In this document: one piece after another, positions 49,585 through 61,834 of the stretch
Layout: each line of letters begins with the position of its first letter
How positions within the stretch are numbered: position 1 is the stretch's first letter
Assembly: GCA_963749085.1 (NCBI GenBank)
Contig: CAVVLG010000002.1
Coordinates: 155,093-219,092, forward strand
Direction: 5' to 3'
Length of the DNA: 64,000 nt
From: Candidatus Adlerbacteria bacterium
GTDB lineage: Bacteria; Patescibacteriota; Minisyncoccia; Phycocordibacterales; SBAW01
Notes under the pieces: model-generated
Database searches by the model: none
What the model was told of the DNA's origin: nothing
Seen by the model: only the letters and a program-made list of their open reading frames with translations
Position numbers and translations under genes: made by a program

Positions 49585-50418
49585 ATGCTTTCATATCCGC
49601 AGGCGATTATCCTTGGGCTCCTCCAAGGCATAACTGAGCTCTTCCCCATCTCCTCCCTCGGCCACAGCGTCCTAATCCCCGCACTTCTCCATTGGCAGGT
49701 AAACCAATCGAGCAACCAGTTCGTAGCGTTCGTGGTTCTCACGCATTTAGCAACGGTACTCGTGCTAGTTCTCTTTTTCTGGAGGGATTGGGTGCGTATT
49801 ATATTTGGCCTCATCCACTCCCTCGTGGTACGTCAGCTTTCAAACCCCTATGCGCGGCTGGGATGGCTTCTGGTAGTGAGCACCGTACCGGCCGGACTTC
49901 TCGGACTTCTCTTCCAGCAAAAAGTGCAGGATCTTTTCAGTGACGCCTCATTAGTGGCCTGTGTGCTTGTGGTGAACGGCGTCGTGCTGTATGCGGCGGA
50001 CCACCTGCGCAAGCGCGCCGAGGAGGGTTCAATGAATACGCTTGCGGGGCTTACCTTCTGGCAGGCTGTCTATATCGGGCTTTTGGAGTGTTTTGCCCTC
50101 ATTCCCGGATTCTCTCGTACCGGCTTTACCATGACCGGCGGCCTATTGGGCGGCCTCTCCAGAGAAGACGCAGCTCGCTATTCCTTTCTTCTGGCGACCC
50201 CGGTTATCTTTGCCGCATCAGTGCTGAAAGTTCCGGATCTTTTTAAAAACGGGCATGCGGGTCTCTTTCCTGCCCTTGTGGGTGCTGTGTGCGCTGCAGT
50301 GGCTTCGTTTGTATCCGTGCGCTTCTTGGTGAAGTACTTCCGCACAAAAACGCTGAAGCCGTTTGCCCTCTACTGCATCCTCGCGGGTCTACTCTCCCTT
50401 ATACTTCTCATGCTCTAA
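49585..50418 (+). CDS. uppP: undecaprenyl-diphosphatase
   Basis: [17 protein letters not shown] and [12 protein letters not shown] BacA/UppP motifs. 8 TM helices. Confidence 0.85.
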
Positions 50419-50467
50419 GGAAAAACCGCCTTTTGGGGTGGTTTCTCTTTAAAAACGTAGATTTGAA

Positions 50468-50725
50468 TTAGGTAAGGTGGTCTGAGACCAACTTGGTCAT
50501 TTCAAACATGGAGACTTCCTTTTTGCCACCAAAGACGACTTTGAGTTTCTCGTCAGCCAAGATATTCCTCTTATTCTGCGGGTTCTGGAGGTTGTGCTTC
50601 TTAATATAGACCCAGATCTGCTTGACGACCTCGGAACGAGGCATAGGACCCTTGCCGACAACCGCTTCAAGATCGGAAGACAGATGCATCGGTTTTAATA
50701 GAGCTGGGTTGGCTTTTCTGACCAT
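50468..50725 (-). CDS. SWIB/MDM2 domain protein
   Basis: 85 aa with LSSDLEAVVG...RSEVVKQIWVYIKKHNLQNPQNKRNILADEKLKVVFG, the SWIB domain signature. Confidence 0.75.
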   Translation of the reverse strand: MVRKANPALLKPMHLSSDLEAVVGKGPMPRSEVVKQIWVYIKKHNLQNPQNKRNILADEKLKVVFGGKKEVSMFEMTKLVSDHLT

Positions 50726-50820
50726 AAAATATAGTTCTTGTTAATGGCTAACTCGACCGGCCTATTGTAGCAGCCTATAGAAGAGCCTGCCACCCCCTTA
50801 GGGGATAACCCCTTTTAGGG

Positions 50821-51579
50821 CTATTTTGGCCGTACGTCCTTATACACATGACTAAAGGGCTTCCCGAAAAAGGTTATCCAGAAATAATTGATCGTATAGC
50901 GCATGCTGGTGACGACTATACCCTCCCCCTTAAGGCGCCTCCCGGAGGCGTAGACCGGGAGTCTAAAGGTCCATTTGACCTTCCCCACTTTGTTGAGACG
51001 CTTTGCCACGTCCGTGTCCTCACCGTAGAAGGTTATGGTGGTGTCATAGCCGCCTGCTTTGTCCATGGCGGCGCGTCGTATGACAAAATTGCCACCCTGG
51101 AGCATGGAGCCTATGTGCAGTACGAATCGGTTGAAAAGATACAGGAGGAAGGCAAAGAAATAAAAGATTTTGACCAGGGTGCGGAACAAAGCTGAGAGAT
51201 CGTAGTAAATGAAGGGCCCAGAAAGCGCCACCAGTTGGCTGTCTTTTTGAAACTCATTCATGACCGTGTGAAGCCAGCCCGAAGGCAAAATGACGTCAGC
51301 GTCTATATTGGCAACCAGATCGCCCGTCGCCGCTTTATGTCCTGCTTGGCGCGCCATGACAAGGCCTTTCTTCGGTTCATCGACAATTTTCACTCCAGGG
51401 AAACTAAGTGCTGTCTCTTTAGTCTTATCGGTTGAGGCGTTGTTGACAACGATGGTCTCGGCCTCATACCTGCCTCCCTTGAGCTCCGTTTGGATAGATT
51501 CCAGGCACGCCCCTATTCGATCCTCCTCGTTATAGGCAGGGACGACGAAACTGATTTTCATGTTATGTAAGCCTACCAC
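50821..51579 (-). CDS. glycosyltransferase family 2
   Basis: ISFVVPAYNEEDRI and a DAD (DxD) motif. C-terminal membrane-associated segment. Confidence 0.8.
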   Translation of the reverse strand: MVGLHNMKISFVVPAYNEEDRIGACLESIQTELKGGRYEAETIVVNNASTDKTKETALSFPGVKIVDEPKKGLVMARQAGHKAATGDLVANIDADVILPSGWLHTVMNEFQKDSQLVALSGPFIYYDLSALFRTLVKIFYFFAFLLYLFNRFVLHIGSMLQGGNFVIRRAAMDKAGGYDTTITFYGEDTDVAKRLNKVGKVKWTFRLPVYASGRRLKGEGIVVTSMRYTINYFWITFFGKPFSHVYKDVRPK

Positions 51580-51633
51580 CCCTTATAAAAAACAAAAACC
51601 GGACGGGGATTCTATCCCCGTCCGGCCAAAAAC

Positions 51634-52248
51634 TCAGCGAAGTGACAACCAGGAGAGGGCCGTGAGGCCAAAGCCTGCACCTGCCCACACCACAAGCGTT
51701 ATGACGTCTGCCGGCGGTTGTGGCGAAAACCATGCTGGCGACCACAACTTCACCACCAAGTGAGTGCCGAGGACCACATGAATCCAGAGCAAAACGCTTG
51801 AGCCTACGACGATCCATACCGGTAGATCGGTCGTGCAGAGGAAAAAGAGGCCGATGATGGTTAGCGCTGCCAGCATAAACCAGAAATGCACGTATGCCGG
51901 CGCAGTGAGTCTTCCGTGATGCATGTGCGAATTGGGGATGTGGTCTTGCAAGTACTGATAGTGCATCACTGCACTCAGTACAAGCGCGGCCAACCCCACA
52001 TACAGGATTTCTCGTCCGCTCCATTGATAGCCGTAGTTCGCCACGACGATTCCGCACCACAGAGCGATGACTATATCGCCCCACATGATGCCGAAGTGCC
52101 ACACCATCGGTAATCCCTTACCATGATGGAGCATCATGTCTTGGGGAGTGAAGAAATGGTCCTCATAGGCAAGCGCTGCCTGAAGGAAGATCAGACTTAT
52201 TCCGACGAGAGAGATCAGAATGCCTGAGATAATGCTTTCGAGCGCCAT
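51634..52248 (-). CDS. hypothetical polytopic membrane protein
   Basis: 6-7 predicted TM helices, His-rich loops. Alternative start at 52275. Confidence 0.4.
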   Translation of the reverse strand: MALESIISGILISLVGISLIFLQAALAYEDHFFTPQDMMLHHGKGLPMVWHFGIMWGDIVIALWCGIVVANYGYQWSGREILYVGLAALVLSAVMHYQYLQDHIPNSHMHHGRLTAPAYVHFWFMLAALTIIGLFFLCTTDLPVWIVVGSSVLLWIHVVLGTHLVVKLWSPAWFSPQPPADVITLVVWAGAGFGLTALSWLSLR

Positions 52249-52388
52249 ACGCGCCTCCTCTGTTTGTTGACCCAAGCTCGATGAAGTTACAAGGACCTAA
52301 TTCATTTTGGAGAGTATCATATTTAATTAAAAACGTCAAGATTAAAAACCCTTTGTACGCAAGGGGAAAAAGGCACATACTTACTTTA

Positions 52389-53582
52389 ATGCGTATCGCC
52401 TATTTTGCCGACAATTTTTATCCGGAGATAAGCGGTATTTCGGATTCGATCATCACGACTGGCGAGGAACTACGCAAGCGCGGGCACGAGGTGGTGTACG
52501 TGGCTCCGCGATACGGCAGAAAGGAATATGAGCCCGCGCAGCGCTTCGACGCCAATAAAAAACCGCTTCATGACCCGCGCGGAGATTTGCCGGTACGGCG
52601 CGTCCCGTCTCTCCCCTTCCCGAACTCGCCGACGAGCCAGTCGCGCATCGCCGTGCCTTTGGGATTTATGCTCCCTTTCATGCGGCGCTTTAAGCCCGAT
52701 ATTATTCACAGCCAAGCGCCCCACGGTGTGGGACTTGAGGCGCTCTACACCTCGAGAGCCTTGGGAGTTCCGCTCATCGGCACGGAGCACACCCCTATTG
52801 AGGAGTTTTTCCATTACAGTCCCGCCGTTTCAAAAACGTTTGGAGCGGCCTGGCTACGCTGGGAAGTCTGGTACTACAACCGCTGCGACTTTGTCACCAC
52901 CCCCTATCAAGGCCTTATTGAGGAGATGCGCGGGCGAGGTCTTCGCTCAAGGGCCCGCGTCCAGGCAAATCCTGTTCCGTTTGAATCCATGCTCTCAAGC
53001 GCTCCGCAAAAAGAGGCGGCCAAAAAGGGCAATGGGTTTACGGGCTCAGTCCTTCTGTGCTCTGGACGTTTAGCTCCGGAGAAAAAAGTCGATGATATCA
53101 TTAAGGCGCTTCCTTCCGTGCTCAAGCAATTCCCCAATGCAACCCTGGTCGTTACCGGACACGGGTCAGCTGAAGCGGCGCTCAAGGCGCTTACCAAAAA
53201 ACTTGGTATAGAAAATAATGTCCGTTTTGTAGGGTTTGTCTCAAACACGCAGTTGGAAACGCTCTACCGAGCAGCAGATATCTATCTCATCATGTCGACC
53301 GCCGAGACTCAATCGCTCTCGCTCATGGAAGCGTTTGCCAGCGGCATTCCCGCCATATCTGCCCGCGCACGCGGTCTTATCGACTACACACCTCCTGAGT
53401 GCGGTTTTTTAATTGAACCCGGCGATGACAAGGGATTGTCTGAAAAAATACTCCTTCTTTTAAGCGACAACGCACTCAGGGAGCGTATGGGTAGCGCGGG
53501 AACGCAGTTTGTCAAAAAATTTACGCCACAGACAATAGCCGAGGACTGGGAGCGGATATACCAAGAAAACCTTATAAATTAA
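52389..53582 (+). CDS. glycosyltransferase family 4 (GT-B, group 1)
   Basis: N-terminal ISGISDSI...GHEV and the C-terminal E-x7-E region (LMEAFASGIPAI). Start set at MRIAYFADNFYPE. Confidence 0.8.
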   Translation: MRIAYFADNFYPEISGISDSIITTGEELRKRGHEVVYVAPRYGRKEYEPAQRFDANKKPLHDPRGDLPVRRVPSLPFPNSPTSQSRIAVPLGFMLPFMRRFKPDIIHSQAPHGVGLEALYTSRALGVPLIGTEHTPIEEFFHYSPAVSKTFGAAWLRWEVWYYNRCDFVTTPYQGLIEEMRGRGLRSRARVQANPVPFESMLSSAPQKEAAKKGNGFTGSVLLCSGRLAPEKKVDDIIKALPSVLKQFPNATLVVTGHGSAEAALKALTKKLGIENNVRFVGFVSNTQLETLYRAADIYLIMSTAETQSLSLMEAFASGIPAISARARGLIDYTPPECGFLIEPGDDKGLSEKILLLLSDNALRERMGSAGTQFVKKFTPQTIAEDWERIYQENLIN

Positions 53583-54190
53583 AGGCTTTTCTCCTCCGCC
53601 TCTTCTTGTTTGAGCAGGCGGCGGCGCATGAAATGCGTGAAGATGTAGTATCCAGTGACGAAGATGCTCACCGCCAGAAGCACCAGCGCCAGGTTATTGA
53701 GGATATTGGAGACCGTTCCGAATGCGCTGCCGAAATAGTAGCCCAAAAACAGGAGCGTGCCGTATTGGAGTATAGTCACGATGATGGCACAGGTAAAAAA
53801 CTTTTTTGGCGACATCTTCACAAGTCCCGCCACCACCAAAAATGTCCCTGCAAGCCCGTAGGAGAGCTTGCTGAAGAACATGGTCCTGCCCGGATATTTC
53901 TCCCACAGCTTATGAACGCCCATGAGGTGCTCGTGCGTGACCCCTATTTTTTTGAGAAACCACTTCGCCACGCGCGTCTGTCCCCCGAAGCGCCCGAGCA
54001 CGTACATGAATGCGTCGACAATGATGTCGCGGAGGAAAAATATGACTGCCAAGAGGATCAGGTTGAAATACCCGAGCGACGCTAAGGTACCGGCGACGAA
54101 GGCCACAATGGGCCCCTCAAGAAAGCACAGCGGAATGAGTATCCAGTAGCGGTAGGTGAGGATAAGGTGGGTGAGGGTCTGTGCGGACAT
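53579..54190 (-). CDS. DedA/SNARE-associated (TVP38/TMEM64) family membrane protein
   Basis: CFLEGPIVAFVAGTLASLGY and GRFGG motifs of DedA proteins. Confidence 0.75.
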   Translation of the reverse strand: MSAQTLTHLILTYRYWILIPLCFLEGPIVAFVAGTLASLGYFNLILLAVIFFLRDIIVDAFMYVLGRFGGQTRVAKWFLKKIGVTHEHLMGVHKLWEKYPGRTMFFSKLSYGLAGTFLVVAGLVKMSPKKFFTCAIIVTILQYGTLLFLGYYFGSAFGTVSNILNNLALVLLAVSIFVTGYYIFTHFMRRRLLKQEEAEEKSL

Positions 54191-54237
54191 TCTGCCAGTA
54201 TATACGATCGAGTAGTATACTGAGGGAAAAGAAATCT

Positions 54238-54909
54238 ATGTATGCGAATTACTACAGTGAGGTTATCAAGCGCTACCGCGTGCACTGCTCCAAACGTTCG
54301 TTCTGGAAAGCGTCCTTTATTGCTTTCCTGTTATTTTTTGCGGCACTTAGTATCAACAGCTATGCGGAAAATTACACGACTTCGGTGGCAAGCAACTCCG
54401 TCACCGATATCGTGCTCTCCAATACCCCGGTATTCGACGTCGACGCGCTCTTCGTCTACGGCATCACGATATTTATTGTTTTTGTCGTCTTAGTGTTGCT
54501 CGCGCACCCGCAGGAAATTCCCTTCACACTCTGCAGCTTCGCGCTGTTCTACCTCACCCGCTCGGTGTTCGTCTCTTTGACTCACATTGCGCCCTTCCCC
54601 ACCGAGACGCCGATAAACTTCACCAGCAGCATAGGGATATTCCTTAGCCATATTTTCTTCGGCGGGGACAGCCTTTTCTTCTCCGCCCACACTGGAGCGC
54701 CTTTTTTGCTGGCGCTCATATTTTGGCGCCAAATCTGGCTTCGATATATCTTCCTCGCCTCCTCGGTCTTCTTTGGCGCGGTGGTACTCCTAGGACATAT
54801 CCACTATTCGATAGACGTCCTCTCCGCCTTCTACATTTCCTTCGGCATCTATCACATGAGCGTATGGCTTTTTAGGAAAGACTACCTGCAATTCCTCGCC
54901 GGGCCTTAA
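54238..54909 (+). CDS. hypothetical membrane protein, possibly PAP2-like
   Basis: 6 TM helices with SAHTGAP and GHIHYSIDV resembling PAP2 motifs 2 and 3. Weak call. Confidence 0.3.
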   Translation: MYANYYSEVIKRYRVHCSKRSFWKASFIAFLLFFAALSINSYAENYTTSVASNSVTDIVLSNTPVFDVDALFVYGITIFIVFVVLVLLAHPQEIPFTLCSFALFYLTRSVFVSLTHIAPFPTETPINFTSSIGIFLSHIFFGGDSLFFSAHTGAPFLLALIFWRQIWLRYIFLASSVFFGAVVLLGHIHYSIDVLSAFYISFGIYHMSVWLFRKDYLQFLAGP

Positions 54910-55098: not shown

Positions 55099-55452
55099 AT
55101 GGATGGCCTTCCCAACTACGAGAGGGAGATTCGCCCGTGGGGAAACTTCGAGCGATTCACCCTTAATGAGAAAACAACGGTCAAGATAGTGACCGTCAAT
55201 CCCGGCGAGGCCATTAGTTTGCAAACGCACGAGCATCGGGACGAATTTTGGCGGGTTATCCGTGGGCTGGGCACTATCCGCATAGGAGATACCACGCACG
55301 AGGCCACCGCAGGCGCCTCGTATTTTAGTCCGCGACACTCTGAACACCGGGTCGAGGGGGGTTCGGAGGGTCTGCAGTTTCTTGAAATCGCGTTCGGCGA
55401 TTTTAATGAGCAAGATATTACAAGACTAGAAGACAAGTATGGGCGCGCGTAA
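55099..55452 (+). CDS. cupin protein of the type II phosphomannose isomerase (ManC C-terminal domain) type
   Basis: REIRPWGNFERF...VKIVTVNPGEAISLQTHEHRDEFWRVIRG...EHRVEGGSEGLQFLEIAFGDFNEQDITRLEDKYGR matches the MannoseP_isomer cupin. Confidence 0.7.
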   Translation: MDGLPNYEREIRPWGNFERFTLNEKTTVKIVTVNPGEAISLQTHEHRDEFWRVIRGLGTIRIGDTTHEATAGASYFSPRHSEHRVEGGSEGLQFLEIAFGDFNEQDITRLEDKYGRA

Positions 55453-55465
55453 TCATTAAGCAAGC

Positions 55466-56599
55466 ATGAGCATGTTGGCGGCGGCAGTTGCGTTCACGGA
55501 GATAACCGTTGTCGGTCTTGTTGGCCTTTTGCTTGTGTGTATTGCGCTCCTCTTCGCCCTTCTCGCGCTTTTCGGCTGGTGGAAAAAGAAGCCCCTGCTC
55601 CTCAAACGCGTACCCGAAAATCCCATTCTCTCGCCCGTACCGGAACATTGGTGGGAATCGCAGGCGGTGTTTAATCCCGCGGCCTTTGCCGAGGGCGATC
55701 GCGTTCACCTTTTATATCGAGCACTCGGCCAAGACGGCATCTCACGCATCGGCTATGCCTCAAGCCTCGATGGTTTGCATTTTGACGAGCGACTTCCCTA
55801 TCCGGTCTACACGCCCTCGCGCGATTTCGGTATTCCGCAGAAAAACCGCGTCTATGGGCCCCTTTCCTACGACACCTATACCTATGCTTCGGGCGGCGGT
55901 TGGGGAGGAGCGGAGGATCCGCGCGTTGTCAAAATAGATGGGGAGCTCTATATGACTTTTGTTGCCTTCGACGGCTGGGGATTTGTGCGCATGGCTCTCA
56001 CCGGATTGGGTCTTGAACATTTCCGCAATAAAAATTGGAAGTGGAGAGTGCCGGTGCTCCTCTCCCCCCCGGGCGAGGTCAATAAGAACTGGATTCTCTT
56101 TCCCGAAAAAATACACGGTAAGTTTGCCATCCTGCACAGTGTTTCGCCTGAGATTCGCATCGAATACGTCGATGATCTCAATGAATTTAACGGCAAAAAA
56201 TTTATTCAAGGCTCGACCCGTTCGGGGGGACGCCCTCATCATTGGGACAAACTGGTGCGCGGGGCCGGTGCCCCTCCCATAAAAACCCCTTACGGATGGC
56301 TTCTTTTGTATCACGGCTTTGATCCGGCACACTCGGAGGTAGCGTATAAAGTGGGTGCCATGCTTCTTGACTTGGAAGATCCGACTAAAATTTTATACCG
56401 CTCCAGCAACCCCATACTGGAGGCCAAGGAGTGGTACGAGAATGACTGGAAGCCGGGCGTTACCTATGCCTCGGGCGCAGTGGTGTTTCATGATGACTTG
56501 CTCGTGTTCTACGGCGGGGGCGATAAGCGCGTCAACGCGGCAAAAATGAATCTCAAGCTGTTTTTAACAGAGCTCAGAGAAGAGAGGAATAGGGTATGA
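55466..56599 (+). CDS. GH130-family (DUF377) beta-mannoside phosphorylase-like protein with N-terminal TM anchor
   Basis: TM helix, then WESQAVFNPAA...HLLYRALGQDG-SRIGYASSLDGLHF...GAEDPRV...YMTFVAFDG...LFPEK...GAPPIKTPYGWLLLYHG, the 5-bladed propeller motifs of GH130. Confidence 0.65.
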   Translation: MSMLAAAVAFTEITVVGLVGLLLVCIALLFALLALFGWWKKKPLLLKRVPENPILSPVPEHWWESQAVFNPAAFAEGDRVHLLYRALGQDGISRIGYASSLDGLHFDERLPYPVYTPSRDFGIPQKNRVYGPLSYDTYTYASGGGWGGAEDPRVVKIDGELYMTFVAFDGWGFVRMALTGLGLEHFRNKNWKWRVPVLLSPPGEVNKNWILFPEKIHGKFAILHSVSPEIRIEYVDDLNEFNGKKFIQGSTRSGGRPHHWDKLVRGAGAPPIKTPYGWLLLYHGFDPAHSEVAYKVGAMLLDLEDPTKILYRSSNPILEAKEWYENDWKPGVTYASGAVVFHDDLLVFYGGGDKRVNAAKMNLKLFLTELREERNRV

Positions 56600-57189
56600 G
56601 ACTGCTACAAAAGGTCAGACCATTGGAAGTGAAAAGATCTTTCGTGCTGTCTGATTTCATCCGGCATCATGAATACAATACCCAGGCCATGGCTCCTCTG
56701 AGTCCTTCCCAATACAAGCGCGAGGTGAAAAGGGCGAACCGCATCGTGCGGGAGATACCTGAAGTGCTGCTCGATCGCATCATCAAGGGAACGTTTGAAA
56801 AGCGTCTCACGGCCTATAAAAAGTTAACGTGGCACATCGGCATAGTGCGCACCGACGAGGTGCGGGTCTGGAGGGGCGCGGGAGGATTGCCAAAAAAATA
56901 CACTATCGGATCTGTAGCTCATACCGGCGATGTCGTACGGAAGGTGCTGGCGAAAAATCCTCGCACGCTCGGAGCGCGTGCACGAAGTGCTATACCAAGC
57001 ATCCTGCACACGTCCCTTTCCATCATCCAACGGGAGAAGTATCTGTTACCGATTGTCATTCCTGGAGGAACGCTCGACAAGAGTGGCTCTCCTGCGTTTC
57101 TTGATATCGATGACGGCTGTATGCGCTCCATTGCGCTTGCGGTCAGTGGAAAGAAAACAATAAAAGTCTACGTCGGCAGGAAAAAATAG
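56596..57189 (+). CDS. hypothetical protein (197 aa)
   Basis: Start overlaps the upstream stop (ATGA). No family recognised. Confidence 0.4.
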   Translation: MRLLQKVRPLEVKRSFVLSDFIRHHEYNTQAMAPLSPSQYKREVKRANRIVREIPEVLLDRIIKGTFEKRLTAYKKLTWHIGIVRTDEVRVWRGAGGLPKKYTIGSVAHTGDVVRKVLAKNPRTLGARARSAIPSILHTSLSIIQREKYLLPIVIPGGTLDKSGSPAFLDIDDGCMRSIALAVSGKKTIKVYVGRKK

Positions 57190-57208: not shown

Positions 57209-59128
57209 ATGTACGTCATCCGCCGCTCCTCCCATAATCCCTTAATCTCGCCTATCGCCGACAAAGCGTGGGAGGCGCGTGGCACCTTCAATCCCTGTCC
57301 TATACGGTGCGGCAACATTACCCATGTGCTCTATCGCGCCTTGGGACGCCCCGACGCACTTATGACTCCTGCAGGCGTTTCAACGATAGGGAAAGCGCTC
57401 TCCATAGACGGCAAGCACTTCCAGAACCGCCGGCAGTTTATCGCTCCCGAGGAACCCTGGGAGAAATTCGGCTGCGAAGATCCGCGGGTTACGTTTTTTG
57501 AAGGACAGTACCTTATTTTCTACACGGCGCTTGGTGGCATGCCGTTCGGCCCTGGAAACATCAAAGTAGCGTGCGCGATTTCCAAAGATCTTGAGAGTAT
57601 TTCGGAGCGTCACCTTATCACTCCCTTTAACGCCAAGGCGATGGTACTCTTCCCTGAGCGCGTGAATGGAAAAATTACCCTGCTACTCACCGCGCACACC
57701 GATGAGCCTCCGGCCAAAATCGCTATAGCCCAGTGCGACAGGCTCGAGGAGCTCTGGGACCTTTCGTTTTGGGAGAAATGGCATTCAGAAATTGACGAGC
57801 ATACGCTCCACCCGCTGCGCAGCGACCGCGATTTTGCCGAAGTCGGAGCACCGCCGCTAAAAACCAAGGACGGGTGGCTCCTGTTTTACTCCTACATGCA
57901 AAATTACTACGATGGCGAGCAAAAGCGTGTCGTCGGTGTCGAGGCCCTACTTCTCAATCTCAAAGACCCCCACGAGATAGTCGGGCGCACCAAAGGCCCC
58001 ATTATGGTGCCGGAGGAAATTTACGAGAAATACGGCATCGTGCCTAACGTCGTCTTTCCTACAGGAGTGCTGCTGTATAAAGACCGGCTGGATCTCTACT
58101 ACGGCGCGGCGGACACGGTGTGTGCGCGGGCCTCGCTTAATCTTCCTGATCTGTTGGATGCCTTGGTACCTGAGCGGCGGGTTGAACTCGTAATGCGTGC
58201 CAAGGAAAATCCGATACTGAAGCCCCTCGACTCCCACCCGTGGGAGAAGAAAGCGGTGTTTAACCCGGCGGCGGTTGATATCGGGGGCTCGGTGCGCCTG
58301 CTCTACCGCGCTATGGGGGACGATAATACCTCAGTCTTAGGGTATGCCGCGAGTAAAAACGGGGTAAAGATAACCGAGCGCTCTTTGGAGCCGGTGTACA
58401 AACCGCGAGAGGATTTTGAAATGAAAAAAAACTCCGGCAACTCCGGCTGCGAGGACCCACGCATCACGCGCATGGGCAGTACCTTATATATGACCTATAC
58501 CGCCTTCGACGGAGTACACGCGACTCGAGTGGCCCTTACCTCCATTACTATAAAAGATTTCCTCGCGGGACGATGGGAAAAGTGGCAAAAGCCGCAGCTC
58601 ACCACCCCTGAAGGGATCAACGACAAGGATACCTGTCTCTTCCCCGAGAAGATAGGCGGACAATATATGTGGCTTCATCGTATCGATCCGCAGCTGTGTG
58701 CCGATTTTCTCGATACGCTCGATTTCTCCAAAAGCCACCTCACCCGCTGCATTGAAATCATGGGTCCGCGTCGGGGCATGTGGGATTCAGAGAAAATAGG
58801 CATCGCGGGCCCCCCGATAAAAACTCCCAAGGGCTGGCTCCTTATCTACCATGGGGTTTCCAAGACCTTGACCTACCGCCTCGGAGCCGTGCTACTTGAT
58901 CTCAAAAATCCCTCCATTATTATCTCGCGCACGGTGGATACTATTTTCGAGCCCATTGAGGAGTATGAGCGAGTCGGCGTGGTTCGGAATGCAGTGTTCT
59001 CCTGCGGCGCCATTGTGCGCGGCGATACCATATATATCTACTATGGAGGTGCTGATACGGTGACTGGGGTTGCTACATGCTCGATGAAGAAATTGCTGAA
59101 GATTTTACTGCCAAATAATTTAAAATAA
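57209..59128 (+). CDS. tandem double GH130-domain protein (639 aa)
   Basis: Two complete GH130-like modules, residues ~1-320 and ~330-639. Each has WE.(R/K)(G/A)(T/V)FNP, LYRA(L/M)G, GCEDPR(V/I)T, Y(T/M)(A/T)(L/F), LFPE and GWLL(F/I)Y motifs. Confidence 0.65.
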   Translation: MYVIRRSSHNPLISPIADKAWEARGTFNPCPIRCGNITHVLYRALGRPDALMTPAGVSTIGKALSIDGKHFQNRRQFIAPEEPWEKFGCEDPRVTFFEGQYLIFYTALGGMPFGPGNIKVACAISKDLESISERHLITPFNAKAMVLFPERVNGKITLLLTAHTDEPPAKIAIAQCDRLEELWDLSFWEKWHSEIDEHTLHPLRSDRDFAEVGAPPLKTKDGWLLFYSYMQNYYDGEQKRVVGVEALLLNLKDPHEIVGRTKGPIMVPEEIYEKYGIVPNVVFPTGVLLYKDRLDLYYGAADTVCARASLNLPDLLDALVPERRVELVMRAKENPILKPLDSHPWEKKAVFNPAAVDIGGSVRLLYRAMGDDNTSVLGYAASKNGVKITERSLEPVYKPREDFEMKKNSGNSGCEDPRITRMGSTLYMTYTAFDGVHATRVALTSITIKDFLAGRWEKWQKPQLTTPEGINDKDTCLFPEKIGGQYMWLHRIDPQLCADFLDTLDFSKSHLTRCIEIMGPRRGMWDSEKIGIAGPPIKTPKGWLLIYHGVSKTLTYRLGAVLLDLKNPSIIISRTVDTIFEPIEEYERVGVVRNAVFSCGAIVRGDTIYIYYGGADTVTGVATCSMKKLLKILLPNNLK

Positions 59129-59224: not shown

Positions 59225-59623
59225 TTACACGGTTTGAAGTGCTCGAGCTAGTTGAAGTCTCGGTCTCACGGCGCTCGGTTTGTACCTTGAAAGATACTCG
59301 CCTCGCTGGTGTGTGATGGATTCGGTCACCACCAAGAAGAAGACCCAGATGTAGAAAGTCACTAGACCCATGCATATGAGGATCAATGTCGGTGGCGCAT
59401 CGAAAGCTCGCGGTACCACGAGGGTCATCACGCGAGCCGATTCAAAGCAGTTCGTGATCAACCCACAAATCAGGCATGCCCCTAAATACCCTACCGACAG
59501 CCAGATGCCAATCGTTGCGTACCAGCCCACCACTTGGACTAACACGAACACTGGAACGAAAACTGGAATCGAAAAGATCGTTCCCACTATCAAAGCCATG
59601 AATACTCGCAGATATAACGGCAT
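59225..59623 (-). CDS. hypothetical membrane protein (132 aa)
   Basis: Four predicted TM helices. Confidence 0.35.
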   Translation of the reverse strand: MPLYLRVFMALIVGTIFSIPVFVPVFVLVQVVGWYATIGIWLSVGYLGACLICGLITNCFESARVMTLVVPRAFDAPPTLILICMGLVTFYIWVFFLVVTESITHQRGEYLSRYKPSAVRPRLQLARALQTV

Positions 59624-59723: not shown

Positions 59724-60476
59724 ATGAATTTCAAACCGAAGCTAGTCGCGTTTGATCTCGATGGGACTATCGCAGAAAGTAAAAGTCTTGTCACTGTTGA
59801 TATGGGCGAGCGCTTGAGTCGGTTATTACAAAAGATACCGACCGCAGTGATGTCGGGGGCTGGTTTCCCCCAGTTTGAGCGGCAACTCCTCCCTGCCATC
59901 CCGGAAGGTGCCCGATTAGAGCATCTCTATATATTCCCGGATAATGCAGCGCAGTGCTTTACTTATCAAAGTGGCGCCTGGAGCATGCGCTATGACAATG
60001 CCTTTACGATGATGGAGCGCGACCGCATACTGCAGTGCTTAAAGGAGGCGCTCGAAGAGACAGGGCTCAGTGACGTGCCGGTGCGCGTGTGGGGGGAACA
60101 GATAGAAAATAGAGGCGCGCAGATAACATTCTCGGGCTTGGGCCAGCAGGCTCCGGTTGAGGAGAAAAAGATGTGGGATCCGACTGGTGAGAAGCGCGAG
60201 CGCCTTCGCGCTGCTCTTATGAAGCGCCTGCCTGAATTTTCAGAGGCAACGGGAGGCATGACCTCAGTCGATATCACACGAAAAGGCATCACCAAAGCCT
60301 ACGGAATACGAAAACTGGTCGAGATGACCGGAATTACGGTGTCTGAAATGCTCTATGTGGGCGATGCGCTTGAGGAAGGTGGCAATGATTACGTTGTGGT
60401 AGAAACAGGGGTACGTACGCAGCCCGTGTTCGGACCTGAAGAAACCGCCAAACTTATCGAGCAGTTACTTTCATGA
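59724..60476 (+). CDS. HAD-IIB hydrolase resembling eukaryotic-type phosphomannomutase
   Basis: FDLDGTI (DxDGT), a cap region, and GGMTSVDITRKGITKAY / GDALEEGGNDYVVV colinear with the PMM family (GGQISFDVFPDGWDKRY / GDKTMPGGNDHEIF). Confidence 0.55.
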   Translation: MNFKPKLVAFDLDGTIAESKSLVTVDMGERLSRLLQKIPTAVMSGAGFPQFERQLLPAIPEGARLEHLYIFPDNAAQCFTYQSGAWSMRYDNAFTMMERDRILQCLKEALEETGLSDVPVRVWGEQIENRGAQITFSGLGQQAPVEEKKMWDPTGEKRERLRAALMKRLPEFSEATGGMTSVDITRKGITKAYGIRKLVEMTGITVSEMLYVGDALEEGGNDYVVVETGVRTQPVFGPEETAKLIEQLLS

Positions 60477-60586: not shown

Positions 60587-61834
60587 ATGACTCGTATACA
60601 ATTAGGCATAATGTCAGCAATCTTTCTTAGCGCGATCTTGTTGGGCGGCGGCGCTACTGCCTACGGCCAGGAAACGAATGTGCCGGGAGACGCCCAATTC
60701 CAGCAAAGGATTGCCGACAGGCTTGCCGAGCTTTCCCAGATACAAAATAAAGGGGCATGTGCCGAAGCCGCCAACGGGTATGCATCTTGTGGTGTACGGG
60801 TGGTTGTCGATTCAAGCGGCCGTGCAAGAGCGAATGTAGCGCCCAGCGGGTACGGTCCGAGTCAATTTCTCGGAGCCTACGACCTCACCGGACTTTCTTC
60901 TTCAAATACGATCGCCATTGTCGATGCATACGATGATCCTAATATCGCGAGCGACCTTAGCACGTACGACTCCTATTTTAAACTTCCCGTGTTTCCGGCC
61001 TGCAGCAGCACCATCACGACTAGTTGTTTTGAGAAGCTAAATGAGAACGGCAAGACCTCTCCCCTGCCGCAATCAAATTCGTCGTGGGATCTTGAAATTT
61101 CGTTGGATGTCGAGGTCGCTCACGCCACGTGCCAAAATTGCCGCATTTTCTTGGTTGAGGCCAATTCCAGCAGTTTTGCTGATCTGCTCAAGGCGGTCGA
61201 TACGGCGGCGAGCAATTCGAGCGTGGTATCGGGCTCCTGGGGCGCAAGCGAATTCTCCGGCGAGACAGCCTACGACAGTACCTTTGACAAGACGGGCGTC
61301 GCGTTCACCTTCAGCGCGGGGGACGGCGGCTATGGGACTTCCTATCCAGCAGCCTCGCCGTACGTGACCGCAGTCGGAGGAACAACGCTGCTGCTCAACG
61401 GCAATTCCTATCTCAGCGAGAGCGTCTGGAGCGGAACGGGCAGCGGCTGCAGTGTCTATGAAACTAAGCCTGCCTGGCAGAATAGCCCCTGCGCCAAGCG
61501 GACCATGAATGACGTTTCGGCAGATGCCAATCCGGCTACTGGTGCTGCTATCTATGATAGTGTCCCATACGATGGGGTTTCGGGATGGTTTGAAGTAGGC
61601 GGCACAAGTCTATCAGCGCCCCTCATCGCCGCAGTGTATGCCCTACAGGGAGTGCCGAGTGGCGTTAAAGCTAATGCATTGCCGTACAGCCAAGGCACTG
61701 CTTCTAATTTAAATAAGGTAACCACCGGGAGCAACGGGTCCTGCGGCACCTATTTGTGTAATGCTGCAGATGCGCTCTTAGGCTATAGCGGTCCCATTGG
61801 AGTAGGTACTCCGAGGGGTACCTCGGCATTCTAG
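60587..61834 (+). CDS. secreted serine peptidase, S8/S53 (sedolisin-like) fold
   Basis: Signal peptide, TIAIVDAYDD (Asp), SAGDGGYG (sedolisin SGDxG-like oxyanion Asp) and GGTSLSAPLIAA (catalytic Ser). Confidence 0.6.
   Translation: MTRIQLGIMSAIFLSAILLGGGATAYGQETNVPGDAQFQQRIADRLAELSQIQNKGACAEAANGYASCGVRVVVDSSGRARANVAPSGYGPSQFLGAYDLTGLSSSNTIAIVDAYDDPNIASDLSTYDSYFKLPVFPACSSTITTSCFEKLNENGKTSPLPQSNSSWDLEISLDVEVAHATCQNCRIFLVEANSSSFADLLKAVDTAASNSSVVSGSWGASEFSGETAYDSTFDKTGVAFTFSAGDGGYGTSYPAASPYVTAVGGTTLLLNGNSYLSESVWSGTGSGCSVYETKPAWQNSPCAKRTMNDVSADANPATGAAIYDSVPYDGVSGWFEVGGTSLSAPLIAAVYALQGVPSGVKANALPYSQGTASNLNKVTTGSNGSCGTYLCNAADALLGYSGPIGVGTPRGTSAF

Follow-up and report, generated by a model that had tools for sequence, protein, structure and literature searches.

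Known GH130 systems and the tandem protein

GH130 is a well-studied enzyme family, members of which are used for oligosaccharide synthesis, and the interconversion of phosphorylases, hydrolases and transferases within it is an active question. Here we analyze a protein with two GH130 modules in tandem, encoded in a 64,000-nucleotide stretch of DNA (hereafter the window) from Candidatus Adlerbacteria, and compare it with the closest described systems. We consider it moderately probable that its two halves form a covalent heterodimer, a complete phosphorylase (the C-terminal or P-type module) being joined to a non-phosphorolytic GH130 paralogue (the N-terminal or T-type module) that is probably hydrolase-like.

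The closest characterized relatives are Teth514_1788, a 1,2-beta-oligomannan phosphorylase, and Teth514_1789, a beta-1,2-mannobiose phosphorylase, both from Thermoanaerobacter sp. X-514 and both in GH130_6 (PDB 9fj8/9gph, 7fip). In Thermoanaerobacter, as in the window, two GH130 units that are cytoplasmic (by prediction in our case) are encoded side by side near mannose-phosphate genes. However, in Thermoanaerobacter each enzyme is a single-module homodimer, separate from the other, and both are true phosphorylases, whereas here the units are fused and one has lost its phosphate site. The partner genes also differ, being those for ManC (mannose-1-phosphate guanylyltransferase), an ABC transporter and GH5 in Thermoanaerobacter, but for mannose-6-phosphate isomerase (MPI) and phosphomannomutase (PMM) here. 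By contrast with these phosphorylases, BT3780 and BACOVA_03624 (GH130_3; PDB 5a7v, 3qc2) are beta-1,2-mannosidases, secreted as single modules and encoded in yeast-mannan polysaccharide utilization loci of Bacteroides. A further comparison is offered by MTP1-7 of Leishmania (GT108; PDB 6q4x, 6q50), which share the five-bladed propeller and, presumably, an inverting chemistry on beta-1,2-mannan, and whose paralogues have split into phosphorylases and non-phosphorylases, the latter glycosyltransferases (GTs), through changes around the phosphate pocket. These are, however, separate proteins, and the non-phosphorylase MTPs use GDP-mannose. The tandem protein does not fall in GT108, with identities of 14–16%, template-modelling (TM) scores of 0.60–0.70 and a rank under all GH130 structures.

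More than 99% of GH130 sequences are monomodular, in agreement with the original prediction, made from the DNA sequence alone, that members of this family normally have a single module; four GH130-GH130 sequences were present in CAZy in 2018, uncharacterised, with both modules in the same sequence-similarity meta-node, notably C3/UC4, which are hydrolase-like groups (Li et al., 2020, PMC7660257). Because both modules share a meta-node, these entries are homotypic, unlike the present protein, whose modules come from different clades and have different active sites. The tandem GH130-GH130 architecture as such is already in CAZy, and the T-P protein is not a new fold or chemistry class. What appears to be undescribed is the heterotypic, conserved T-P pairing, the charge-inverted pocket of its N-module, and the operon of Paceibacteria with three flavours of GH130. 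Literature searches on GH130 in Patescibacteria and on GH130 pseudoenzymes or heterodimers turned up no account of the T-P architecture; a paper on a Microgenomates genome names two GH130 genes and no more.

The open reading frame (ORF) is intact, with an ATG start and a TAA stop, and is divided as follows.

57209..59128, plus strand: tandem GH130 protein with a T-type and a P-type module, 639 amino acids (aa) (from ORF, Pfam and hydropathy)
57209..58174, plus strand: N-terminal GH130 module, T-type, residues 1-322 (from structure-chain matches and residue alignments)
58175..58195, plus strand: short linker, residues 323-329 (VPERRVE..), from the C-terminal helix of module 1 to the first strand of module 2 (from model secondary structure and HMM domain boundaries)
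58196..59125, plus strand: C-terminal GH130 module, P-type, residues 330-639 (from structure-chain matches and residue alignments)

PF04041 (Glyco_hydro_130) matches the protein in two stretches (E=1.3e-92, 310.6 bits vs. a cutoff of 26), and BLASTP aligns residues 1-326 with residues 327-639 along the whole length at 101/335 identities (30%, E=1e-40), well above chance similarity but lower than the 35–40% that had been estimated by eye. Four motif pairs stand at equivalent positions in the two halves: WEARGTFNP (21-29) and WEKKAVFNP (345-353), LYRALG (41-46) and LYRAMG (365-370), GCEDPRVT (88-95) and GCEDPRIT (413-420), and GWLLFYSY and GWLLIYHG. Both halves match Teth514_1788 (9fj8) end to end (E=1.5e-39 for the N-half, E=1.2e-58 for the C-half), and Teth514_1788 and Teth514_1789 (7fip) are the best solved-structure matches of both, with 38–40% identity for the best-matching module. 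An AlphaFold2 model built on 32 homologues (mean pLDDT 93.6, pTM 0.90) contains two complete propellers with a ~7-residue linker. In a Foldseek search of solved structures with this model, the top matches were 7fip, 9gph and 9fj8, each propeller having a target-normalised TM score of 0.88–0.91 and an rmsd of 1.8–2.8 Å, and no solved chain spanned both propellers. Therefore, both by the PF04041 profile and by the five-bladed propeller fold, each half belongs to GH130, and the original prediction of two complete GH130 modules in tandem, with the core motifs of the family present in the second half as well, is borne out. Since a pTM of 0.90 for a two-domain chain means that the relative placement of the domains is confidently predicted, the two propellers are modelled as one rigid two-domain unit. 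Neither a signal peptide nor a transmembrane segment was found in the tandem protein (maximum 19-aa Kyte-Doolittle hydropathy 1.01), and it is predicted to be cytoplasmic.

Active sites of the two modules

GH130 phosphorylases are recognized by a proton-donor Asp (D104 in UhgbMP), the lack of a catalytic base and a phosphate-binding Arg/His pair (R168/H231), while Glu/Lys at the Y103/R150 positions of the +1 subsite predict beta-1,2 specificity (Li et al., 2020, PMC7660257). Three basic residues hold the phosphate; they are missing from the hydrolases BT3780 and BACOVA_03624, which have glutamates instead, and substitution of carboxylates for the basic ligands of phosphate makes hydrolases out of GH130 phosphorylases (Cuskin et al., 2015, PMC4599007). 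We examined these positions in three sets of relatives, namely the best 120 clusters from a 5.8-billion-protein collection (close homologues), 12 distant clusters at 42–51% identity, and 80 species genomes with loci carrying relatives of the tandem gene at 53–79% identity. The two active sites were compared in a MAFFT alignment of 64 modules from 32 family members plus Teth514_1788, using columns at least 90% conserved in both module types.

The C-module has the canonical signature residues Asn352, Arg367, Glu415, Asp416 (the donor), Lys473, Asp474, Arg491, Lys529, His548, Tyr556, Arg557 and Asp616, among which Arg491, His548, Arg557 and Lys529 correspond to the phosphate ligands. Asp416, Arg491 and His548, with Arg557 and Lys529, are kept in 78–80 of the 80 species, and Glu415 and Lys473, the predictors of beta-1,2 linkage, in all 80; across the three sets, the pattern is always D/R/H/R with E/K. 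Like the Teth514 pair, the C-module has every catalytic, phosphate-binding and beta-1,2-specificity residue. Its best NCBIfam model is that of beta-1,2-mannobiose phosphorylase (NF052550), placed on residues 330-629. The score of the whole protein (429.8 bits) is close to but under the equivalog cutoff of 450, so that it is a relative rather than an equivalog, which fits the "hypothetical protein" labels of the family. Judged by its sequence, the C-module has all that is expected of a GH130_6-like beta-1,2-mannoside phosphorylase.

The N-module has the same sugar site but a different phosphate pocket. Fifty alignment positions are common to both module types, including every sugar-contacting residue and the donor; the shared sugar and acid residues (N-module/C-module) are Asn28/352, Arg43/367, Glu90/415, Asp91/416, Lys143/473 and Asp302/616. 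Another 12 positions are conserved in each type but different between the types, and of those to which a role can be assigned, most are in or beside the phosphate pocket. The following switches belong to this group.

Thr161 (N-module), Arg491 (C-module): position of Teth514_1788 R161
Ser228 (N-module), His548 (C-module): position of Teth514_1788 H214
Gly243 (N-module), Arg557 (C-module): position of Teth514_1788 R223
His209 (N-module), Lys529 (C-module): position of Teth514_1788 R195, aligned with R242 of Uhgb_MS
Phe242 (N-module), Tyr556 (C-module)
Ala142 (N-module), Asp472 (C-module)
Glu211 (N-module), Gly531 (C-module): carboxylate gained in the N-module
Glu245 (N-module), Gly559 (C-module): carboxylate gained in the N-module

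Outside the twelve columns, the N-module also has Ala144 (80/80 species) where phosphorylases have D/N after the beta-1,2 Lys (Asp474 in the C-module). On the DNA, the remodelled pocket is spread over two segments.

57689..57709, plus strand: Thr161 (equivalent of Arg491 and of Teth514_1788 Arg161), then an extended loop (from model and alignments)
57830..57943, plus strand: remainder of the remodelled pocket, with Asp208, Phe209, Glu211, Ser228, Val242, Gly243 and Glu245 (from alignments)

The loop, residues 163-169 (His-Thr-Asp-Glu-Pro-Pro-Ala), has 7 residues vs. 2 in the C-module, and its Asp165, invariant in 32/32 aligned family members, is the third carboxylate gained by the N-module. 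An early hmmalign mapping, in which the lost Arg was Thr164 and Asp165 was variable in distant members, was replaced by the present one (Thr161, with Asp165 invariant), for which the Arg-equivalent position was fixed by the secondary structure of the model together with the 64-module MAFFT alignment. The window copy deviates from the family at two of these positions, having Phe209 (57833-57835) and Val242 (57932-57934), and may differ functionally from the family norm.

In the 80 species genomes, conservation at the key positions is as follows.

N, R, E, K and D: conserved in 80/80 N-modules and 80/80 C-modules
Proton-donor Asp: 79/80 N-modules, 80/80 C-modules
Arg161 position: no basic residue in the N-modules (0/80; S/T/A in 80/80), Arg in 80/80 C-modules
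His214 position: Ser in 79/80 N-modules, His in 80/80 C-modules
Glu211 position: Glu in 80/80 N-modules, Gly in 80/80 C-modules
Glu245 position: Glu in 79/80 N-modules, Gly in 80/80 C-modules

The same pattern of both modules holds in the 120 close homologues and in the clusters at 42–51% identity. Within the close family, mean pairwise identity is 79.4% for N-modules and 75.5% for C-modules, and the values for the distant members are 42% and 39%, respectively; being as conserved as the C-module, the N-module is under constraint and not decaying.

Both halves therefore keep the donor Asp, whereas only the C-half keeps the phosphate ligands. The motif series is not equally complete in the two halves, as had been supposed at first: the pair GWLLFYSY and GWLLIYHG itself contains the loss of the phosphate-binding His in the N-half, and the Arg residues are lost as well. 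Because its phosphate ligands have changed from basic to small or neutral residues (Thr161, Ser228, Gly243, His/Phe209) and carboxylates have come in, the N-module is predicted to be unable to use phosphate in the usual way. With Thr161 and Ser228 in place of the Arg/His pair, it is not a phosphorylase by the published criteria, and its phosphate pocket appears to have changed from basic to acidic, i.e., to be charge-inverted. The idea in the original prediction that the tandem could create a heterodimer-like enzyme with two different subsites or specificities is reasonable, as the active sites do differ and the rigid model fits this idea.

Distribution of the fusion and proposed function of the N-module

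All of the best 120 clusters are 624–664 aa long, cover 97–100% of the query at 73–80% identity, belong to Patescibacteria and are labelled "hypothetical protein" or "predicted GH43/DUF377". A HMMER scan of 1.84 billion cluster representatives gave 4588 matches, 536 of them below 1e-30, and most of the top 150 are 600–650 aa long. Full-length relatives of the fused protein, annotated as hypothetical, occur in at least 574 species-representative genomes of Patescibacteria (Paceibacteria/Parcubacteria; 574 of the 600 candidate GTDB stretches examined), and the labelled host genomes among those listed are Adler-, Nomura-, Zambryski-, Taylor- and Kaiserbacteria, Paceibacterota and Minisyncoccia. 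Within its own lineage the T-P fusion is nothing unusual; it is the normal form in Paceibacteria. The chance that two adjacent GH130 genes were joined by a sequencing or assembly error is negligible, even though split versions, as adjacent or overlapping genes, exist in other lineages, since the fused ORF, at full length and with its short linker conserved, is present in hundreds of independent assemblies as well as in these species genomes.

A neighbour-joining tree of 48 modules has two clades, one of which holds all T-type modules, the other the P-type modules, the S-type modules (a third GH130 paralogue, encoded upstream and described below) and the two Thermoanaerobacter enzymes. Mean identities between modules are 31% for T-P, 33% for T-Teth514 and 40% for P-Teth514. 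Among the members of the T clade are modules of P0126 and P0121 and the stand-alone proteins P0143, P0146 and P0165. P0126 (645 aa, L003:2243-4180) has the reversed order, P-type then T-type, and P0121 (971 aa, L002:6001-8916) is an S-T-P triple fusion, whose gene comes after a GT2 cellulose-synthase-like gene and overlaps the end of a ManC gene. At L090:3-1572, an upstream canonical GH130 gene (MHRIYP...LIYHAV) overlaps that of the stand-alone T-type P0146, and the gene of P0143 follows a gene for a 612-aa two-propeller GH130 protein in L001. Fusion in both orders, together with split adjacent genes, is a classic signature of two proteins working as a pair. A sister family of ~600–650 aa proteins (P0148, P0152-P0154 and about 90 more; e.g., L001:2808-4646 and L003:4210-5949) has an intact C-terminal GH130 (300–380 bits), and in its N-terminal ~270 aa a faint GH130 remnant (20–78 bits or undetectable) from which the catalytic residues are gone; this looks like an advanced stage of degeneration of the N-terminal propeller. 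In the longer homologues P0123, P0242 and P0264, Pfam searches found nothing beyond GH130.

Taken together, we hypothesize that two anciently diverged GH130 paralogues are packed as one two-propeller unit in the cytoplasm. The C-module would be an inverting beta-1,2-mannoside phosphorylase that catalyzes the reaction of Teth514_1788/1789, beta-1,2-(Man)n + Pi <-> alpha-Man-1-P + (Man)n-1, in which Asp416 would donate the proton, Arg491, His548, Arg557 and Lys529 would hold the phosphate, and Glu415 and Lys473 would set the beta-1,2 specificity. The -1 and +1 subsites of the N-module, which are intact, would bind a beta-1,2-mannoside, with Asp91 as proton donor, and by its likeness to BT3780 the module would most probably cleave the mannoside with water, the base being perhaps Asp165, Glu211, Glu245 or the family-wide Asp208. 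Like BT3780, the N-module keeps the donor Asp (Asp91), the adjacent Glu and the beta-1,2 Lys (Lys143), has lost the basic phosphate ligands and has carboxylates in the pocket, among which there may be counterparts of Glu227 and Glu268, the base candidates of BT3780. Unlike the secreted single-module enzymes of Bacteroides, however, it is fused to a phosphorylase and is predicted to be cytoplasmic. It is not a member of GH130_3, as it has no signal peptide and lies outside the GH130_3 clade; it scores 65 bits vs. BT3780 and 139 bits vs. Teth514_1788, and the NCBIfam BT3780 model (NF058598) gives 191 bits vs. a cutoff of 550, with the best-scoring stretch on the C-half. As the N-module resembles the GH130_6 phosphorylases far more than it does GH130_3, a phosphorylase-to-hydrolase switch in this lineage would be a second, independent one. 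What is seen here looks like a second exit from phosphorolysis in GH130, this time in the cytoplasm, and the N-site would be of the beta-1,2-mannosidase type, with an origin separate from that of the secreted GH130_3 hydrolases.

Several observations weigh against hydrolysis by the N-module. Known GH130 hydrolases are secreted, whereas the tandem protein is predicted to be cytoplasmic, and Glu268 of BT3780 seems, by HMMER coordinates only, to align near Asp206-Asp208, an acid that is also present in phosphorylases. The clades of the neighbour-joining tree carry no bootstrap values. The window copy has Phe209 and Val242, where 31/32 family members have His and 29/32 have Phe, respectively, and if His209 is catalytic, the window copy could be impaired. 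Further, the kept sugar residues and Asp91 are equally expected for a non-catalytic module that binds mannosides, because the -1 mannose is also held by a hydrogen bond from the proton-donor Asp (Cuskin et al., 2015, PMC4599007). The N-module might accordingly be a pseudoenzyme, either a lectin-like beta-1,2-mannoside binder that feeds or holds the chain for the phosphorylase, or a structural stand-in for the second subunit of the Teth514_1788 homodimer. All its phosphate ligands are gone, the model shows a rigid two-domain assembly, and Teth514_1788 and Uhgb_MS are obligate dimers, the donor site of Uhgb_MS being built by loops of both subunits (PMC12814180). The sister group with a degenerate N-terminal propeller and an intact C-module (~610 aa) indicates that a non-catalytic N-terminal propeller is viable in this superfamily. 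Nevertheless, we regard a pseudoenzyme as unlikely. The proton donor and all six sugar and acid residues are kept in 79–80 of the 80 species, the three new carboxylates are invariant or nearly so, which new chemistry explains better than decay, the N-module evolves no faster than the C-module, and T-type proteins also stand alone (P0143, P0165).

Alternatively, the N-module might be a beta-1,2-mannosyltransferase that depends on GDP-mannose or another activated donor, with the C-module as phosphorylase, in analogy to the mannogen synthase/phosphorylase pair of Leishmania. All tested beta-1,2-specific GH130 phosphorylases have weak GT activity with GDP-mannose (PMC12814180), and the strict GTs of GT108 are without the phosphate-pocket Arg. 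The smaller residues in the pocket could make room for a bulkier leaving group, and a metal bound by the new Asp/Glu residues could bridge a diphosphate. In Uhgb_MS, however, K184, R202 and R242 are the proposed holders of the donor phosphates, and R242A lowers GT activity 10-fold (PMC12814180), whereas the N-module has Thr161 in place of R202 and His/Phe209 in place of R242, so that two of the three are lost; the net negative charge would also disfavour a diphosphate unless a metal is involved. A link of the operon to GDP-mannose was considered, as the triple-fusion gene of L002 overlaps a ManC gene, and rejected: ManC is not encoded in the window and is found in only 3/80 loci, and the conserved partners, MPI and PMM, make mannose-1-phosphate (Man-1-P), not GDP-mannose. 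Against any such assignment from the pocket, the partition between GT and phosphorylase activity is not predictable from pocket residues alone (Franceus et al.). The original prediction had offered a phosphorylase half and a transferase-like half as an example. The phosphorylase half agrees with the complete C-module, but transferase-like is not the best description of the N-module, because two of the three GDP-mannose phosphate residues are lost and carboxylates are gained, and we consider it improbable that the N-module is a transferase. More improbable still is a fused Teth514_1788/1789-like pair, in which each module would be a phosphorylase with its own chain-length or acceptor specificity. 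Those two enzymes are the best matches of both halves, and Thermoanaerobacter does have two adjacent GH130 phosphorylases with different chain-length preference; but the phosphate-contacting Arg/His of the N-module are lost across 80 species, with carboxylates there, and the module fails the published criteria. The reading that we favour, a complete phosphorylase joined to a probably hydrolase-like paralogue, adds a large unannotated clade to GH130 (at least 574 species), in which the phosphorylase is permanently coupled to a paralogue with an apparently inverted charge in its pocket. The T-P protein is a widespread and easily testable case of active-site divergence in a covalent enzyme pair, from an uncultured phylum.

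Operon and neighbouring genes

The genomes of Paceibacteria are tiny and encode very few carbohydrate-active enzymes. In the window, the tandem gene stands in an operon with the following partners.

55099..55452, plus strand: cupin-type MPI, 117 aa; upstream partner, 59/80 loci
55466..56599, plus strand: third GH130 paralogue, S-type, 377 aa, with an N-terminal transmembrane helix; upstream partner
59724..60476, plus strand: HAD-IIB PMM-like protein, 250 aa, PF03332; present in 40/80 loci, at one or the other end of the operon

The order conserved in the 80 species is (PMM)-MPI-S-[T-P]-(PMM). In 78/80 loci an S-type gene immediately precedes the tandem gene, the aligned ends lying a median of ~46 nt apart, and all but one of the MPI and PMM genes are on the same strand. 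In 76/78 of these S-type modules the equivalent of Arg161 is absent (S/N/A/G), the His is kept in 76/78, and Lys is found at the Arg223 position; the S-type of the window has Ser at the phosphate-pocket Arg position and keeps the His and a Tyr-Lys. As the S-type is without the Arg161 equivalent and the N-module without the phosphate ligands, the P-type is alone among the three GH130 modules of the operon in having a complete phosphate site. The transmembrane helix of the window S-type (residues ~18-36) is followed by KKK, which suggests that the domain is on the cytoplasmic side. This anchor is not general, being found in 23/78 loci.

MPI and PMM would be the two enzymes that connect Man-1-P to fructose-6-phosphate, and the operon, with its three flavours of GH130, would therewith link beta-1,2-mannosides to fructose-6-phosphate without nucleotide sugars or ATP. 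Given such small genomes with so few carbohydrate-active enzymes, an operon with three GH130 modules, MPI and PMM is likely to be central to the sugar economy of Paceibacteria, either as a way to harvest beta-mannosides from hosts without ATP or as a means to keep a reserve glycan; we infer that flux could run toward catabolism or through a reserve-glycan cycle. A more far-reaching idea, which we hold to be doubtful, is that Paceibacteria run a nucleotide-sugar-free beta-1,2-mannan cycle from this five-gene operon, as a bacterial counterpart of mannogen. In such a cycle, the P-type would add and remove mannose with Man-1-P and Pi, the S-type (membrane-anchored in this genome) would prime or localise the glycan, and the T-type would do chemistry that is new for a cytoplasmic GH130, either water-mediated trimming or attack by a new nucleophile in the charge-inverted pocket. 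The fusion would then be an obligate heterodimer acting on the same chain, with the T-type site always travelling with the P-type site.

Other genes around the operon are less conserved. A 197-aa ORF (56596-57189, plus strand) lies between the S-type and tandem genes, its start overlapping the stop of the upstream gene; it has no Pfam or NCBIfam match and is present in only 2/80 related loci, and it looks like a lineage-specific insertion in the operon. Between the tandem gene and PMM lies a very hydrophobic 132-aa ORF on the minus strand (59225-59623), with no family match and with no counterpart in the 80 related loci; in relatives, PMM comes within ~20 nt after the tandem gene. A 415-aa protein encoded downstream (60587-61834, plus strand), found in 0/80 related loci, has a hydrophobic segment near its N-terminus and resembles mycosin-type serine proteases only faintly, at a score under the threshold. 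The region shortly upstream of the mannose operon (49585-54909) encodes BacA (undecaprenyl-diphosphatase), a 251-aa GT2, a GT4, a DedA/VTT protein and a PAP2_C protein. A link of the operon to lipid-linked glycans was dropped, because BacA, GT2, GT4, DedA and PAP2 genes accompany the operon in only 2–7 of the 80 loci each; BacA recurs in L001 and L006.

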